Below the pieces are notes generated by a model, which saw only the letters and a program-made list of their open reading frames with translations, was not told the DNA's origin and did not search any database. A stretch of 42,352 nucleotides of DNA. Source: Candidatus Magasanikbacteria bacterium RIFCSPHIGHO2_01_FULL_33_34 (GTDB lineage Bacteria; Patescibacteriota; Patescibacteriia; Magasanikbacterales; UBA922). This document shows, piece after piece, positions 1,111-28,201 of this stretch. The stretch is from contig MFPS01000003.1 of NCBI GenBank assembly GCA_001782825.1, forward strand, positions 1-42,352. Reading direction: 5' to 3'. The position numbers and the translations under genes are program-made. Each line of letters begins with the position of its first letter. The stretch's first letter is position 1.

Positions 1111-3504
1111 ATGAAAAGCAAAAGAATACTAAAATTAACAAAAAAAGTTTTTACATTTGGTTTGATTATTAGTTGGCTTTTTACTAGTTGGCCACAAATT
1201 CCATTTGTTAATTTTCCAGAAAAGGTTCAAAAAGCACAGGCTGCAATTTCTGCGACTCATTTGACTGCTGGTAGTAATACATATCCATCTGATACTGGTA
1301 CCACAGCTTCTATTTCTCCAACTGCTAATGCTCTTATCATTGTAACGGTTGGAGTTTATAATGGTTCAGGTAATCCACCAACACCAATTTCAGTTATAGG
1401 GAATGGGATTACCTATGAACTGATAGATTGTTCAGGTGAATGGCATAGTGGTTTTGATGCAGAAATGGTTTGTATGTATCGTGGTCTTTCTGCTTCGCCT
1501 ACAACAGGGACAATAGTAATTACAGGAGATACAGGTACAGGTTATCTTTCTTGGTCGGTGGATGAAATTACAGGTGTATATGATACAGGTGGAAGTAATG
1601 GTAGTGGTGCGGTAATTCAATCTAATACATATTCTTCTGGAGCTGGTACAACTGATACAATTACTGTAACATTAGGTACTTTTGCAAGCGCTGGTAATGG
1701 AGTTTTGGGAACAGCTTATAACTATAATGCTGGAACTTTGGCAATAACTAAAGAAGCTGGATTAACAGAACTTGTGAGTAATTATCCTAATGATAATCCA
1801 GAAACAGCTTGGAGGAATGATAATGACACAAGTCTTGTTTGGACATTAACTGCAGATTATTCTGGTGGTATGGCTATTGAGGTTAATGGAACAGCACCTG
1901 GGACTTGTGATGGTGGGGCTGTTAGTAATGTTGTTTTTATTGGTAAGGTTAATGGTGATTGTATAGGTTTTGTTTCATCTACAGGTGCTGGTACTTTTAC
2001 ATTACCAGGAGATTGGTCTGATACTAATTTAATTGAAGTTATAGGTGCTGGTGGAGGTGGAGGTGGTACTAGTTCTGGTGATGGTTCTGGTGGTGGAGGT
2101 GGTGGTGCTTATGCGACTACAACTATTGCTAGTTTGGCAGATGGGGTTAGTTATTTTGTTGGTATAGGTGGTCCTTCTGCTACTGTTGGTTCGTCTACAT
2201 GGTTTGGCGCTACAACTTGTGGTGCGGCTAATGTCTGTGCTGGTGGTGGTGGTACTGCTACGGCTGGTGGTACTAATGCAAATACAGGCGGAGCTGGTGG
2301 AACTGTAGTTGTTGGCCAAGGCTATGCAGGCGGAGCTGGTGGTGATGGTGGTGGTGATACTGATGGTGGTGGCGGTGGTGGAGGAGGAGCCGGTGGGACA
2401 ACTGGGATTGGCGCTGCTGGAGGAGGATCAACTTCACATGCTATTGATGGTGGTTCTGGTGGTGGTGGTGCAAGTGGTGGTGATGTTGGAGCTGTAGGTC
2501 CAAGTACTAATGTTGGTGGTGATGGCGGAGCTAATTTTACAAATAGGAATGGTAGCCCTGGCGGTGGTGGAGCTGGTGGTAATGGAACAGATGGTACTGC
2601 TGGTACGTTAGGTGCTGGTGGTGGTGGTGGTTCTGATGCTTCTCAGGCTGCCAATGAGGATGGAGGAGCTGGTGGTAATGGTATAGATTTATGGGGTGCT
2701 TCGCCTTTTTATGGTTCTGGTGGTGGTGGTGGTGGTGCTGGTGATAATGGTATTGGTGGTAATGGAGGTAGATATGGTGGTGGAGGGGGTGGTACAGGTG
2801 AAGATGGTGATATTGGTGGTACTGGTGGACAAGGTCTTATTGTTATTACTTATACTCCATCATTAGCGCCTGTATTTACTCTTAATTCATATAGATGGTA
2901 TGTAGATAATGATTTTGTAGATCCATCTAATTCTTGGGGAAATCCTGATATAGCTCAAGATACTGCTATAACAATTTTACCTTATAGTAATCTTGCACCG
3001 ACTAGTACAGTAGAATTACGTTTGCGAACTAATTTTACTGTAAGTTCAGCTGCACTGAGTGCGGGGGCTCAACAATTTAAATTACAATTCAAAGAAGGAA
3101 CAGACGCTACGTGTAATACAGGTAGTTGGACAGATGTTGGTGCACAAGCTAGTGCTGTAACTTGGCGTTTTGCTAATTCTAGTGTAACAACTTCACTTTT
3201 ATCAGTGACTAAGCTTTCTCCAGTTTCCAATGTATTAGAGAGTTATGTAACTACTACTCCAACTTATGTGAATCCAAATTCTGTTTCTGTGGGAGAGGAG
3301 ATGGAATATGATTTTCATATTGAGCACAACGGGGCAACCTCTACAGATCAATATAGTTTTAGAGTAGTAGAAAGTGATAATACAGAATTTGATTCTTATA
3401 CAAATTGTCCTACTTTGGCTACAGGACCAGAAACGGCAGATTTAATGAGGCATGGTAATATGATTACTGCTATTGGTGAGCAAGGGTTTTATTGGGCAAA
3501 TTAA
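1111..3504 (+). CDS. Membrane-anchored or secreted glycine-rich domain protein
   Basis: 797-aa ORF with a hydrophobic N-terminal segment (FTFGLIISWLFTSW). The central region, about nt 2040-2830, is dominated by GGxGG/GGGGGG runs. It starts IEVIGAGGGGGG and ends GGQGLIVITY. The C-terminal part is not low-complexity. Confidence 0.6.
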   Translation: MKSKRILKLTKKVFTFGLIISWLFTSWPQIPFVNFPEKVQKAQAAISATHLTAGSNTYPSDTGTTASISPTANALIIVTVGVYNGSGNPPTPISVIGNGITYELIDCSGEWHSGFDAEMVCMYRGLSASPTTGTIVITGDTGTGYLSWSVDEITGVYDTGGSNGSGAVIQSNTYSSGAGTTDTITVTLGTFASAGNGVLGTAYNYNAGTLAITKEAGLTELVSNYPNDNPETAWRNDNDTSLVWTLTADYSGGMAIEVNGTAPGTCDGGAVSNVVFIGKVNGDCIGFVSSTGAGTFTLPGDWSDTNLIEVIGAGGGGGGTSSGDGSGGGGGGAYATTTIASLADGVSYFVGIGGPSATVGSSTWFGATTCGAANVCAGGGGTATAGGTNANTGGAGGTVVVGQGYAGGAGGDGGGDTDGGGGGGGGAGGTTGIGAAGGGSTSHAIDGGSGGGGASGGDVGAVGPSTNVGGDGGANFTNRNGSPGGGGAGGNGTDGTAGTLGAGGGGGSDASQAANEDGGAGGNGIDLWGASPFYGSGGGGGGAGDNGIGGNGGRYGGGGGGTGEDGDIGGTGGQGLIVITYTPSLAPVFTLNSYRWYVDNDFVDPSNSWGNPDIAQDTAITILPYSNLAPTSTVELRLRTNFTVSSAALSAGAQQFKLQFKEGTDATCNTGSWTDVGAQASAVTWRFANSSVTTSLLSVTKLSPVSNVLESYVTTTPTYVNPNSVSVGEEMEYDFHIEHNGATSTDQYSFRVVESDNTEFDSYTNCPTLATGPETADLMRHGNMITAIGEQGFYWAN

Positions 3505-24836: not shown

Positions 24837-26177
24837 ATGAAGATATCATTTTATGGCGCCGCCGAAGAAGTAACTGGTTCTTGTTTTTTGTTAGAGACAA
24901 AATCAAGAAAAATATTAGTTGATTGCGGGATGTTTCAAGGATCAGATTTTAATGAAGCAAAAAATAGTGATGACTTTTTGTTTGATCCAAAAAGTTTGGA
25001 TGCAGTTTTGGTAACGCATGCGCATTTGGATCATATTGGTAGGATCCCAAAATTGGTACAAGAGGGGTACAATGGGCCTATCTATATGACAAAAGCTACG
25101 GTAGAACTAGCTTTGCTTATCTGGGAGGACGCATATAAGATTATGGAATATAACAATAAGAAATTTCAAGCACCAATTTTGTATTCTGAGGAAGATATAA
25201 ATAAAGCACATAAGTTATGTAAAGGCGTAAATTATTATGAAAAAGTTGATATAGGTGATGTAAAAGCATTGTGGAAGGATGCTGGGCATATATTTGGTGC
25301 ATCTTTTATTGAAGTTGAAGCTGATGGTAAAATGATTGTTTTTTCAGGTGATATTGGGAATAATAATGTGCCAATATTACGGGAAACTGATCAGATTGGT
25401 AAGGCGGATGTTTTGTTGTGTGAATCAACTTATGGTGGCAGAGATCACGAAACTCACAAGGAAAGTGTAGAATTGGTTATGAAATTAATCAAAGAAGGTT
25501 ATGATAGAGGTGGAGTTATTATGATACCAGCTTTTTCTTTGGAAAGAACACAAGAGTTTCTTTATGATTTGAGTCAAAGAGAAGATGAATTGCCAAATTT
25601 ACCAATTTTTTTGGATAGCCCACTAGCAATAAAGGCTTTGCCAGTTTATAGAAAATATTCAGAATATTATGATAGAGAAGCTAAAGTTATATCTGAGGCT
25701 GGTGGAGATTTCTTTTTGTTTGATAAATTGGAAATAACTAGTACCCCAGATCAATCAAAAAAAATAAATGACGCGCCGATGCCAAAAATGATAATTGCTG
25801 GTTCTGGTATGATGAATGGTGGTCGTATATTGCATCATGCTTTTAGATATTTGTCAGATCCAAATTCAACGCTCATTATAATTGGGTATCAAGCAGAAGG
25901 AACTTTAGGAAGAAAATTATATGAAGGTGAAAAGAAAGTAAAAATATTTAACAAGGAAGTAGAAGTAAAGTGTGCCATAAAAGCCATTGGTGGTTTGTCA
26001 GCTCATGGAGATCGTAGTAAGATGTTGAGTTGGGTGAGAGGTGCACAAAAAATACCAGAAAAAGTTTTTTGTGTTCATGGAGAAAAAAGTTCAGCCGTAT
26101 CTTTGGCGCATGCAATGCAAGATGAATTTGGAATAGATACTATAATACCCAAGTTTGCTGAAACTGTGGAAATATAG
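24837..26177 (+). CDS. Metallo-beta-lactamase fold beta-CASP ribonuclease (CPSF/RNase J-like)
   Basis: HAHLDHIGRIP (HxHxDH motif), ESTYGG, beta-CASP motifs, and the C-terminal HGE/SAHGD pattern. Confidence 0.8.
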   Translation: MKISFYGAAEEVTGSCFLLETKSRKILVDCGMFQGSDFNEAKNSDDFLFDPKSLDAVLVTHAHLDHIGRIPKLVQEGYNGPIYMTKATVELALLIWEDAYKIMEYNNKKFQAPILYSEEDINKAHKLCKGVNYYEKVDIGDVKALWKDAGHIFGASFIEVEADGKMIVFSGDIGNNNVPILRETDQIGKADVLLCESTYGGRDHETHKESVELVMKLIKEGYDRGGVIMIPAFSLERTQEFLYDLSQREDELPNLPIFLDSPLAIKALPVYRKYSEYYDREAKVISEAGGDFFLFDKLEITSTPDQSKKINDAPMPKMIIAGSGMMNGGRILHHAFRYLSDPNSTLIIIGYQAEGTLGRKLYEGEKKVKIFNKEVEVKCAIKAIGGLSAHGDRSKMLSWVRGAQKIPEKVFCVHGEKSSAVSLAHAMQDEFGIDTIIPKFAETVEI

Positions 26178-26214
26178 TTTTTATTTTTGTAAATAAAAAA
26201 AGTATATTAAAAAT

Positions 26215-26335
26215 ATGGGAGAGGGGTGAACCAAACCTAAAACCGCATACGCTGTGTTATGCACCATGAGTCGTAGTGTAGCGGATGCGAGAAGTGCAGC
26301 GTGGCGCGACTAAAAGGAGCGAGTTCAAAAAATAT
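26215..26335. other. Unassigned block of moderately high G+C, not coding (candidate small RNA or island edge)
   Basis: gggagaggggtgaacc...gtggcgcgactaaaaggagcgagttc stands out from AT-rich flanks. Only ORFs of 15 codons or fewer. No match to any RNA family I can recognise. Confidence 0.3.
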
Positions 26336-26524
26336 TTTTCAATTAACTGTATTTTGGTAGGCTTTTTCTCAATTATATCAATAAATTTGTTTTTTATCTG
26401 GGATGGGGATTAAGGGATGAATACACACCACCCAAAACATCTTATTTTAAGGTAAACAACAGGAATTTTGGTTAAAAAATGGCTTATTTTAGTAAAATTA
26501 ATCCCTGTTTTTTTGGGCTTGGTA

Positions 26525-26553
26525 TTGACAAGAGTCTTTTTTTATGCTATATT
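26525..26553 (+). promoter_or_regulatory. Consensus sigma70 promoter of the GC-rich cassette (TTGACA-N17-TATATT)
   Basis: TTGACA at 26525-26530, a 17-nt spacer, TATATT at 26548-26553. Same hexamers and spacing as the hrcA promoter. Confidence 0.7.
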
Positions 26554-26559
26554 ACTATG

Positions 26560-26740
26560 TCAATTTGGTAGATTTCGTTCTGCCTTCGCAGTAGTGAAAC
26601 CTCTAAATTGCAAGTGTTCTTTAAAAAGAGAAAGGCAAGCAAATGCGTGGGCATAATTCTGGTTATTTCTAACGAAGTAGCCAAGATCATGCCCACACAT
26701 CGTTTGGCAGCAGAAATCCACTTCAGAGGAGAAAAACAAC
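26560..26740 (+). promoter_or_regulatory. Long (~180 nt) structured 5' leader with a Shine-Dalgarno site
   Basis: Closing helix GATTTC-gtt-CTGCC (26571-26584) with GGCAG-ca-GAAATC (26706-26718). Internal hairpins CTGC-cttc-GCAG (26580-26591) and GTGGGCAT...ATGCCCAC (26646-26653 / 26688-26695). AGGAG at 26727-26731 lies 9 nt before the ATG. Confidence 0.5.
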
Positions 26741-27751
26741 ATGGAATTTAAGGCAACCAACCATCTTCGCGCCGAAGCTGACGAGGGCTGGATCGCCCTG
26801 GTTATGGGCAACTGGTTCCACAACAGCAACCGGTGCGACCTGCCCACCAGAACGCTCCGCATCTACTTCGCGCACTTCGACAACTACGAGCTGCGTGAGG
26901 GTACGACCGATCAGGGACATGTCGTTAACCTCTCCGGCTTCGACGGATCGAGGTATTGTGAGCCGCAGGGCTGGAATCGCTTCAGCAACGCGTACTACAT
27001 CGGCTACCAGGTCCGCGACCTGCAGTCCTTCGTCTGGCGCGCTGAGTACCGCAAGCACCGCTTCGAGATCCGCGCCCAGCGCATCGACAACAACCGCTGG
27101 ACCGTCGAGTACTGCAGCAACTGCGAGAACAGCGAGCACCGCTTCGAGATGGTGGAGTACAGGGATCTGCTGAAGGACTGGTTCCAGATGATCGACCCCG
27201 ACACCTTCGAGATCACGACGGCGACCACGACCATCGCTCTCGCCTCGGCTGCTGGCTCGGCTTCCCAGGTCGTCTGCAAAGGTGCCTCACGGGGCAACCA
27301 CACGCAGATGTACATGAAGCTCATCGCGTTCGCCGAGACCCAAGGCATCACCGACGCGAACAAGTGCTTCGGCGCCAGCGCCGTTCACGGTGAGCCCAAG
27401 CGTGCGGAGCTCCGAAACTGGTGGAAGATGATGTTGGAGCTCCACCGTGAGGAGGACCAGCCGACGTTCCGCGAGGGTTTCGACACCGTGCACGCCTGGG
27501 AGCTGTGCCACATCGACATACTTTTCGCCTGCTACGGCGATCAGCTTCCGAGATACATCCGTCACGGCAGTAACACAGTTCCTCAGGACCAGCTCGTCGA
27601 AGAACTGGTCATCATCGGACGCGCCGTACACAAGGTCCTGGGTCACCAGCCGACCTTCTCCTTCCGCGAGTATCTGTTCGGGCACTTCGAGAAGGATGTA
27701 CAACAGATGTTGTACAAGGTCAGCGAGAAGCTCGGTTGGACGATGGTGTAG
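26741..27751 (+). CDS. Orphan 336-aa protein with alien composition (~60% G+C, G/C-ending codons). Two domains joined by a T/A/S linker; function unknown.
   Basis: A 336-codon open frame is not expected by chance even at this G+C. 41 of the first 50 codons end in G or C, against 8 of the first 30 in dnaK. SD and promoter lie upstream, and a hairpin, ribozyme and terminator downstream. I recognise no family. Confidence 0.75.
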   Translation: MEFKATNHLRAEADEGWIALVMGNWFHNSNRCDLPTRTLRIYFAHFDNYELREGTTDQGHVVNLSGFDGSRYCEPQGWNRFSNAYYIGYQVRDLQSFVWRAEYRKHRFEIRAQRIDNNRWTVEYCSNCENSEHRFEMVEYRDLLKDWFQMIDPDTFEITTATTTIALASAAGSASQVVCKGASRGNHTQMYMKLIAFAETQGITDANKCFGASAVHGEPKRAELRNWWKMMLELHREEDQPTFREGFDTVHAWELCHIDILFACYGDQLPRYIRHGSNTVPQDQLVEELVIIGRAVHKVLGHQPTFSFREYLFGHFEKDVQQMLYKVSEKLGWTMV

Positions 27752-27782
27752 TACCAACTGCCTTTCTTTTTAACATTTAACT

Positions 27783-27815
27783 GGGGCCAGCTCGATGTAC
27801 AATCAAGCTGGCTCC
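27783..27815 (+). other. 3'-UTR stem-loop between the stop codon and the hammerhead
   Basis: GGGGCCAGCT (27783-27792) pairs with AGCTGGCTCC (27806-27815): 10 bp including one G.U, with a 13-nt loop. Confidence 0.6.
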
Positions 27816-27816
27816 A

Positions 27817-27882
27817 AAGGATCTTCCATTGAGAATGGAACTGATGAGTCCAAATGATTGTAATGAACAGGACGAAATTCTT
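27817..27882 (+). ncRNA. Type III hammerhead self-cleaving ribozyme motif
   Basis: AAGGAUC|UUCCAUU-gag-AAUGGAA-CUGAUGA-GUCC-(18-nt loop)-GGAC-GAA-AUUCUU. The full invariant core is present (C3-A9 at 27841-27847, G12A13A14 at 27874-27876, A15.1-U16.1, C17 at 27823, G10.1-C11.1). Stems are I = 7 bp, II = 4 bp, III = 6 bp with one G.U. Confidence 0.8.
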
Positions 27883-27893
27883 ATTAAATAACT

Positions 27894-27915
27894 CCGCCAA
27901 CACAGCGGTTTTTTT
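27894..27915 (+). terminator. Intrinsic terminator of the GC-rich cassette (short stem, strong U-tract)
   Basis: CCGC-caacaca-GCGG followed by seven T residues (27909-27915). Confidence 0.5.
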
Positions 27916-28083
27916 ATTCAAAAAGCGTTTCTGGAGTGTAGCGAAGGAAACATCATATTTCTACTAATCAAAAAAATAAAAAATAAATTTATCCCTTATT
28001 GAAAAAGCTTACCAAAATTTTGCTATTAAAAGAAAAATATTTTTTGAATTGCGTATAACTGTGGATAAAGTGCCTAAAAATGA

Positions 28084-28136
28084 TTGTTTCATAATTAAAA
28101 GTGGTGTATAATGGAAATAGGTGGGGAAAAGTGGGG
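28084..28136 (+). promoter_or_regulatory. mraZ promoter with phased GTGGNG direct repeats (candidate MraZ operator)
   Basis: TTGTTT (28084-28089), 17-nt spacer, TATAAT (28107-28112). GTGGTG at 28101, TGGAA at 28112, GTGGGG at 28121 and GTGGGG at 28131 have a 10-nt period. Confidence 0.55.
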
Positions 28137-28201
28137 AAAATAAAGTTTTCTACTTTATGCTTGTCGGTAGAAATTAAGTAAAAAATAACTATAACCTTGT
28201 T

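Follow-up and report, generated by a model that had tools for sequence, protein, structure and literature searches.

A type III hammerhead motif between a conserved hairpin and a terminator downstream of a GC-rich gene in Candidatus Magasanikbacteria

Introduction

Downstream of a GC-rich open reading frame (hereafter ORF X) in the genome of Candidatus Magasanikbacteria bacterium RIFCSPHIGHO2_01_FULL_33_34, positions 27817-27882 of the forward strand carry what the sequence and its comparison with related loci support well as a genuine, selectively maintained type III hammerhead ribozyme. As to its function, we infer self-cleavage in vivo and an effect on the fate of the mRNA: the motif is probably an active ribozyme whose cleavage gives the mRNA a 3' end protected by a hairpin, whether or not termination takes place. 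Throughout, "the window" is the whole stretch of DNA that was analysed, 42,352 nt of contig MFPS01000003.1 (assembly GCA_001782825.1), and all coordinates are those of the window.

Hundreds of hammerheads are known from bacteria, and they include types I, II and III. Many flank small, non-conserved ORFs without an assigned function, and what these ribozymes do has yet to be settled; those described are often clustered, two or three of them flanking genes, and lie near integrases or prophage genes (PMC3088659, PMC6155905). A preliminary description of the present motif had called it unusual. With hundreds of bacterial hammerheads known this was overstated, whereas the context is indeed unusual, namely a CPR genome and ORFs of extreme GC content at the third codon position (GC3) that apparently have been swapped between conserved flanks.

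Results

The motif can be divided into the following parts.

27817-27882, + strand: the whole hammerhead motif, read as AAGGAT/C/TTCCATT-GAG-AATGGAA/CTGATGA/GTCC-(18 nt)-GGAC/GAA/ATTCTT
27817-27822, + strand: 5' strand of stem III, AAGGAT (positions 16.6-16.1), from the sequence, the Rfam alignment and covariation
27823/27824, + strand: predicted cleavage site, with scission after C17 (C27823), from its place in the hammerhead consensus
27824-27840, + strand: stem I hairpin, TTCCATT (27824-27830) with AATGGAA (27834-27840) and loop GAG (27831-27833)
27841-27847, + strand: catalytic core C3 U4 G5 A6 U7 G8 A9 (CTGATGA), from the sequence and the Rfam alignment
27848-27873, + strand: stem II of 4 bp with an 18-nt loop 2, GTCC (27848-27851), loop (27852-27869), GGAC (27870-27873)
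27874-27882, + strand: core G12 A13 A14 (GAA, 27874-27876) and 3' strand of stem III, ATTCTT (15.1-15.6, 27877-27882)

Stem I consists of seven Watson-Crick pairs, stem II of four pairs and stem III of six pairs including one G.U. The A15.1-U16.1 pair is made by A27877 and U27822, the G10.1-C11.1 pair by G27848 and C27873, and the cleavage triplet is AUC. Stems I and II are closed by loops, loop 1 having only 3 nt and loop 2 having 18 nt, and stem III is open, so that the type III layout is present. The preliminary description had placed the motif at 27817-27882 on the + strand with all invariant core bases, the two pairs and the AUC triplet, and with helices of 7, 4 and 6 bp and one G.U in stem III; on rereading the strand we found the position exact and the core and the three helices as claimed.

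When 301 nt were searched, the Rfam model RF00008 (Hammerhead_3) aligned end to end (model positions 1-54) at 27816-27883 with 34.0 bits and an E value of 8.2e-6. The E value of this match was 0.0012 when the whole 42-kb window was searched against all 4227 Rfam families, and it was the sole match with E ≤ 0.05; at gathering scores, no family reached its cut-off anywhere in the window. The gathering score of RF00008 is 48.5, which is a curation threshold and not a property of the RNA, and part of the shortfall arises because loop 2 is long (18 nt against a consensus of about 8). The preliminary description had proposed this covariance check and regarded a score below the gathering threshold as a refutation; the check returned RF00008 as the only significant match, but at 34.0 bits against 48.5. 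The E values and the comparative data outweigh the sub-gathering score.

Energetically, the hammerhead is the MFE structure of the isolated 68-mer, but its energy is no better than that of shuffled sequences (z = 0.35), and with the upstream UTR added the MFE structures of the window and of the related locus L027 favour other pairings over stems II and III. Because thermodynamics is thus neutral, the case rests on sequence comparison. A conserved alternative "off" structure, in which the 3'-UTR motif would pair with loop 2, is not supported, as the MFE alternatives differ between loci. In natural hammerheads a tertiary contact between loops 1 and 2 is common and is needed for fast cleavage at physiological Mg2+. 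Inspection of five sequences by eye, which reaches Watson-Crick pairs and not non-canonical contacts, revealed no conserved or evident complementarity between the two loops.

Searching elsewhere for the same motif, as the preliminary description had suggested, turned up related hammerheads in L027 (Candidatus Peregrinibacteria), L024 (Patescibacteria group bacterium) and L002 (a metagenome contig), and a probable one in L010 (Candidatus Shapirobacteria). The L027 hammerhead scores 36.7 bits with Rfam. That of L002 lies 53 nt past the stop codon of an ORF X homologue (51% identical) and scores 27.4 bits with Rfam and 38.1 bits with our own model R1 (E 1e-8). The L010 sequence, probably a fifth copy, scores 18.3 bits with R1 when filters are off; all its helices form and it matches the descriptor, and Rfam gave no match for it at E < 0.1. 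A scan of 185,579 GTDB species genomes with the core pattern returned 20 matches, approximately equal to its own chance estimate (about 20). Three of these, L027, L024 and L010, pass the helix test and are all CPR genomes; the other 17 fail it and were treated as chance.

The core bases C3-A9 and G12 A13 A14 are identical in the window, L027, L024, L002 and L010, and G10.1-C11.1 is G-C in all five loci. Position H17 is C, C, C, A and A across the five and never G. In the model-guided alignment of the window with L027, L024 and L002, 100% of the pair cells are standard pairs and compensatory changes are found in 9 of the 17 pairs, with all three helices affected; stem I, for instance, shows A-U to G-C changes between the window and both L027 and L024. 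None of 500 shuffled controls reached any covariation measure, and slid partners pair at 31-58%. The five ribozymes were aligned by covariance model together with a manual pair table; MAFFT misaligned L002 and L010. Since pairing is complete, the changes are compensatory and both the shuffled and the slid controls fail, we conclude that the hammerhead fold is under selection. Loop 2 (18-19 nt) hardly varies between the window, L027 and L024; that of L002 is shorter and different, and that of L010 unrelated. The type III identity given in the preliminary description is thus supported by helix covariation in four to five loci and by the recurring layout of ORF, hairpin, ribozyme and terminator, whose 3' elements in the window are as follows.

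27772-27782, + strand: 3'-UTR motif AACATTTAACT(GG), the point where homology with L027 and L002 resumes past the ORF
27783-27815, + strand: upstream hairpin with 13 stacked positions, one C/A mismatch and one G.U
27893-27915, + strand: weak intrinsic terminator, a CCGC/GCGG stem with a C/A mismatch (C-G in L027) and seven T
27916-28059, + strand: conserved non-coding stretch past the terminator, 80-85% identical to L027 and L024, ending at TTGAATTGCGTATAAC

The AACATYTAACTGG motif, the hairpin, the ribozyme and the terminator follow one another in that order in the 3' UTRs of both the window and L002, which are homologous. The preliminary description had taken the hairpin at 27783-27815 as 10 bp; its stack in fact comprises 13 positions, of which 12 are pairs and one is a C/A mismatch. 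The hairpin stops 1 nt short of stem III and 8 nt short of the predicted cut; it is conserved in L027 and L024, and an analogous hairpin is present in L002. The terminator starts about 11 nt 3' of the ribozyme in the window and has a stem of only 4-5 bp; we read it by eye and from conservation, and a simple scan did not call it on the + strand. In the window, L027, L024 and L002 alike, the terminator stands 9-11 nt 3' of the ribozyme and the hairpin abuts stem III.

From the stop codon to the ribozyme, the window has no terminator. Neither R1 nor Rfam detected a second ribozyme in the 42-kb window, and the 5' region of ORF X holds no ribozyme or other known RNA; excision or circularisation is therefore unlikely, because no second ribozyme flanks ORF X. 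The downstream gene is convergent in L027, L002 and L010. Since the downstream genes are convergent, the hairpin is fixed by the cut site in four loci and there is no second ribozyme, the ribozyme appears to serve the upstream transcript and not a downstream operon. The upstream transcription unit comprises the following elements.

26525-26553, + strand: sigma-70-type promoter, TTGACA-17-TATATT with TG before the -10, 11/12 matches, conserved in L027
26556-26625, + strand: 5' leader with a 5'-terminal hairpin, about 90% identical to L027, from alignment, fold and blastn
26643-26700, + strand: long imperfect hairpin that directly precedes the Shine-Dalgarno sequence, in a part of the 5' UTR that is not conserved
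26741-27751, + strand: ORF X, 336 aa, 59.6% GC, GC1/2/3 0.56/0.39/0.84, a rare family

The promoter is on the same strand as the ribozyme, and the ORF X transcript is predicted to start near 26560. With the stop codon at 27749-27751, the cut after 27823 would fall 72 nt past the stop, the distance that the preliminary description had given. That description had also regarded the ORF as compositionally alien, and its GC3 of 0.84 against 0.10-0.32 in the other 36 ORFs indeed makes it the single compositional outlier of the window. The start and stop codons of ORF X mark the limits of the GC-rich island, and the promoter, UTRs, ribozyme and terminator are host-like; the GC excess, being confined to codon position 3, is a coding and not a structural signal.

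Relatives of ORF X are rare: a search of 5.8 billion proteins yielded only 7, and one of 1.84 billion representatives yielded 13. ORF X gave no match against Pfam, NCBIfam or PHROGs, and its AlphaFold model (mediocre, pLDDT 64) gave none at E ≤ 0.001 when compared with the PDB by Foldseek. Protein scans with ORF X found no relative in GTDB genomes or viral contigs, and those of metagenomes gave one already-known locus. High GC3 is kept by ORF X in five of six lineages despite 40-55% amino-acid divergence. The homologues in L001, L004, L005 and L008 are followed by a hairpin and a terminator without the ribozyme, and because of these four the ribozyme must be dispensable for the ORF X gene.

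The comparison with L027 separates the flanks from what lies between them. Window positions 26373-26622, with the promoter and the leader hairpin, are 77-82% identical to L027, and positions 27772-28059, with the motif, hairpin, ribozyme, terminator and about 140 nt more, are 85% identical, while the ORFs between these shared flanks are unrelated. The L027 ORF encodes roughly 114 aa with GC1/2/3 of 0.54/0.37/0.91, and a protein database search with it returned only itself. Where the window has the hairpin at 26643-26700, L027 has a different, perfect hairpin of 14 bp. In L010, another unrelated GC-rich ORF is followed by a GC-rich hairpin and then the ribozyme. Because unrelated ORFs precede the ribozyme and four ORF X homologues lack it, it belongs to the expression module and not to a particular gene.

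The surroundings are those of an ordinary CPR chromosome, with hrcA-grpE-dnaK-dnaJ, lepA, recJ, murJ, corA, mraZ-mraW, clpB, dnaB and recR in the window and a gene for a beta-CASP/RMMBL ribonuclease adjoining the element. Using exact MraZ and beta-CASP proteins, we found 15 strain contigs that are 99.8-100% identical over the covered parts of 26178-28201; the identical contigs represent one aquifer population and include GCA_001782875.1 and GCA_001784315.1. No integrase, transposase or reverse transcriptase is encoded in the 42-kb window, and searches of phage, plasmid and viral collections (tblastn, blastn and two viral pattern scans) gave no match.

Several known kinds of element were considered for the locus and rejected. 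Prophage-associated clustered hammerheads do not fit a single ribozyme with housekeeping neighbours and no phage, plasmid or viral match. When the stretch 26560-27823 was folded in silico, the median pair span was 31 nt and long-range pairs were few, so that the predicted structure is not rod-like; together with the presence of one ribozyme and the GC excess at codon position 3, this speaks against an integrated obelisk- or viroid-like RNA. For an integron-like attC or a transposon, there is no integrase or transposase, and an inverted repeat of about 75 nt is only partly present in L027.

Discussion

From this anatomy a course of events can be proposed. The ribozyme would be transcribed within the 3' UTR of ORF X, from the promoter near 26525-26553 to the terminator near 27893-27915, and the RNA would fold while being made and cut itself after C27823. 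The 5' product would be the ORF mRNA, ending in the hairpin (27783-27815) followed by AAAGGAUC and carrying a 2',3'-cyclic phosphate, 72 nt past the stop codon, whereas the 3' product, about 92 nt that begin with a 5'-OH and include the ribozyme core and the terminator, would be discarded. Cleavage at 27823/27824, a protected cyclic-phosphate end and the separation of the mRNA from the terminator, as the preliminary description had envisaged them, are consistent with the anatomy read from the sequence. In this way the hairpin-ribozyme-terminator module could provide a foreign or exchangeable gene with mRNA of a single, defined 3' end, which is protected by the hairpin, needs no host factor and does not depend on the weak terminator working; cleavage would also uncouple the translated mRNA from read-through RNA. 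The benefit of cutting is not obvious, because a terminator hairpin would already protect the 3' end.

A wider reading, which we put forward only tentatively and consider more doubtful than probable, is that the ribozyme sits in a CPR gene-expression "slot", where extreme-GC3 orphan ORFs (0.84-0.91) are exchanged between AT-rich conserved flanks. The flanks of such a slot may be a strong promoter with a 5'-terminal leader hairpin on one side and the 3' hairpin, hammerhead and terminator on the other. If this were true, the hammerhead would provide each incoming foreign gene with a host-independent, standard mRNA 3' end, and ORF X would owe its high GC3 either to being imported again and again from a GC-rich donor that has not been sampled or to selection acting on the mRNA itself.

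Among the other explanations of the motif, an aid to termination or an insulator against read-through seems unlikely to us. In Bacillus subtilis, the 5'-OH product of the glmS ribozyme is broken down by RNase J1, an enzyme that is also capable of torpedo action. By cutting before a weak terminator, the hammerhead would likewise let an RNase J-type 5'-to-3' exonuclease enter at the 5'-OH, so that read-through RNA antisense to convergent genes might be degraded and the polymerase perhaps dislodged. This agrees with the 4-5-bp, mismatched terminator stem of the window, which the scan did not call on the + strand, with the convergent downstream genes in L027, L002 and L010, and with the beta-CASP/RMMBL ribonuclease gene that adjoins the element in the window. 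In L027 and L024, however, the ribonuclease gene is outside the conserved module, and the tightly conserved hairpin directly upstream of the cut would be left without an explanation. It is quite improbable that the ribozyme instead frees a small RNA, namely the 92-nt 3' fragment (27824-27915) with its long conserved loop 2 acting on a target. The fragment ends in a terminator hairpin like many small RNAs derived from 3' UTRs, and its loop 2 of 18-19 nt is unusually large and nearly invariant in the window, L027 and L024. Yet little can be drawn from the conservation of the loop, since these three are closely related and about 90% conserved throughout; moreover, L002 has a shorter, different loop and L010 an unrelated one, and no target was identified.

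We also regard it as improbable that the ribozyme is a relic without a present role, which arrived with a mobile, viroid-like or retro element that brought the GC-rich gene. Such an origin would suit upstream ORFs of foreign composition whose families are tiny or have a single member, the lack of the ribozyme at four ORF X homologues, and the frequent ties of bacterial hammerheads to phage-derived DNA (PMC3088659, PMC6155905). Against it, all three helices carry compensatory changes across lineages, which shows that the fold is under selection, and the ribozyme is AT-rich and host-like, being part of the conserved flank and not of the GC-rich cargo; the window has no integrase, transposase or reverse transcriptase and no phage, plasmid or viral match, and the transcript is not rod-like. 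Finally, a hammerhead consensus could arise by chance in AT-rich intergenic DNA, and the Rfam score under the gathering cut-off, the fold energy no better than that of shuffles and the 20 genome matches of the core-only pattern, close to its own chance estimate of about 20, would all be in keeping with this. We give this explanation almost no weight: the match has an E value of 0.0012 for the whole window against all families, and the independent homologous sites with compensatory changes exclude chance on the comparative data.

The locus is of wider interest. The literature has yet to settle what bacterial hammerheads are for (PMC6155905, PMC3088659), and most known cases lie in messy prophage contexts, whereas here a single copy stands in a clean setting of one promoter, one ORF, a terminator and, directly against the ribozyme, a hairpin. 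Its legible anatomy makes possible a direct test of whether hammerheads serve bacteria in fixing the 3' ends of mRNAs. Across CPR lineages the motif is kept with covarying pairs, and some homologues of the same gene lack it; it also draws attention to an as yet unexplained class of orphan genes with extreme GC3 that occupy a conserved expression module. In the literature searched, no paper joins "hammerhead ribozyme" with CPR or Patescibacteria terms, and a single paper contains both "Peregrinibacteria" and "ribozyme", each one time and outside title and abstract; the finding extends hammerheads to Peregrinibacteria/Patescibacteria, where none is mentioned in that literature.

Compared with the type III family RF00008 (clan CL00010), the window motif has the same invariant core, open stem III, A15.1-U16.1 and G10.1-C11.1 pairs and NUH triplet, and it differs in its 18-nt loop 2 (consensus about 8), its loop 1 of only 3 nt and its score (34.0 bits, below 48.5). 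The window copy is single and lies in the 3' UTR of a chromosomal mRNA, rather than in the circular RNA of a viroid or satellite or among tandem repeats. The genomic hammerheads of bacteria and prophages (Perreault et al. 2011, PMC3088659; PMC6155905) are likewise encoded in DNA, with an ORF that is small or not conserved beside them, and likewise presumed to cut a longer transcript to gene length (PMC3088659, PMC6155905). Unlike the clustered prophage hammerheads, that of the window is single; housekeeping genes surround it on a CPR chromosome, a conserved hairpin and a terminator enclose it, and the ORFs associated with it have extreme GC3.

Other self-cleaving RNAs offer further parallels. 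Martick et al. are said to have described in 2008 a discontinuous hammerhead in the 3' UTRs of mammalian CLEC2 mRNAs, with its halves hundreds of nucleotides apart, which reportedly removes the poly(A) signal region and lowers expression. It shares with the window motif the place in the 3' UTR of a protein-coding mRNA and an expected effect on the 3' end and on expression; it differs in being eukaryotic and split, and homology is not expected. The glmS ribozyme, reportedly shown by Collins et al. in 2007 to hand its 5'-OH product to RNase J, is likewise a self-cleaving RNA of a bacterial UTR and a precedent for an mRNA fate controlled by a ribozyme. It has, however, another fold, lies in the 5' UTR, depends on a metabolite and destabilises the coding fragment, whereas the coding fragment of the window would be the 5' product. 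RiboJ, a synthetic insulator that Lou et al. are said to have introduced in 2012, combines a type III hammerhead with an adjacent hairpin in a cassette for context-independent expression. RiboJ is engineered, sits in the 5' UTR and has its hairpin downstream of the ribozyme, while the arrangement in the window is natural, lies at the 3' end and has its hairpin upstream.

Conserved flanks and an apparently exchanged ORF

The promoter with its 5' leader and the 3' module of hairpin, hammerhead and terminator are 77-85% identical between two genomes, those of the window and of the Peregrinibacteria locus L027, and between these flanks L027 carries an unrelated orphan ORF with a GC3 of 0.91 in place of ORF X, the GC-rich ORF of the window.

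Regions shared by the window and L027
Window 26373-26622; L027 6140-6356; promoter and 5' leader
Window 27772-28059; L027 6820-7114; 3' module

Judged from the sequences, this retention of the flanks with replacement of the ORF looks like cassette exchange. The neighboring genes around the module also differ among the window, L027 and L024, a Patescibacteria locus with a related hammerhead. The gene immediately upstream of the element in the window (24837-26177) encodes a metallo-beta-lactamase/beta-CASP/RMMBL ribonuclease (RNase J/CPSF-like) of 446 aa, and this adjacency is kept in neither L027 nor L024. The 5' leader at window 26556-26625, which matched no Rfam family, is about 90% conserved in L027. 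It forms a hairpin right at the 5' terminus of the predicted transcript, where it may stabilize the mRNA.

The whole unit is bracketed by an imperfect inverted repeat of ~75 nt with roughly 80% identity between the arms, which may represent mobile-element ends or duplicated regulatory DNA.

Arms of the inverted repeat
Window 26322-26400; left arm; kept only in part in L027
Window 27975-28050; right arm; kept in L027 and L024

The first base of L006, a contig overlapping the locus, corresponds exactly to window 26325. A ~105-nt island at window 26216-26320 (about 45-46% GC), the final ~20 nt of which are kept in L027, separates the beta-CASP gene from the element; it gave no Rfam match with E < 1 and may encode a small RNA in one or the other orientation.

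Composition and annotation of ORF X

ORF X alone among the 37 ORFs of the window has a high GC3, 0.84 vs 0.10-0.32 for the others. Its homologues also form GC-rich islands inside AT-rich contigs, with GC3 of 0.69-0.74, and the family shows no amelioration towards the host except for the copy in L005, the only one with a host-matching GC3 (0.29). Despite the common high GC3, amino-acid identity among ORF X and these homologues is just 37-60%.

Homologues of ORF X
L001 2222-3280
L002 176-1207
L003 10001-10810
L008 3406-4233
L005 1417-2436

A separate 797-aa ORF of the window (1111-3504) contains long glycine-rich GGT repeats, especially at 2000-3000; its local GC is 0.48, its GC skew 0.475 and its GC3 only 0.13, and it had no Pfam match.

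Several metagenome contigs end within ORF X, near window 27210-27237.

Contig ends inside ORF X
L042; about window 27210
L036; about window 27229
L006; about window 27236

L006 (coverage 1.5x) runs on from its break into unrelated 61% GC DNA (L006 913-1518). This join is probably an assembly chimera, though it might instead reflect a k-mer common to a GC-rich genome from the same sample. In the NCBI assemblies GCA_001782875.1 and GCA_001784315.1, the GC-rich island is annotated as two antisense ORFs of 138 and 156 aa, and the 336-aa ORF is not called.

Antisense gene calls
L033 2522-2938; window 26723-27139; minus strand
L033 3086-3556; window 27287-27757; minus strand

Because codon-position GC and the homologues favor the plus-strand ORF, these calls look wrong.

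Hammerhead-like sequences elsewhere

In L004, ORF X is truncated to 269 aa, and downstream of this copy lies AACTCTAACATTT...CGCGTCTGATGGG (L004 1930-1995), which resembles the stem III/stem I sequences of L002 (AACTCTA|TGCGTCTGATAGG), a contig carrying both a homologue and a hammerhead; the catalytic core is absent. This likeness may be coincidental, or the segment may, on sequence grounds, be a decayed hammerhead turned terminator hairpin.

Two IMG/VR viral contigs (L029 8721-8778 and L031 3906-3963) share one hammerhead-like motif, with good stems I and II, a weak stem III and 22.4 bits against R1, the hammerhead model built in this analysis. This viral motif is unrelated to the CPR module.
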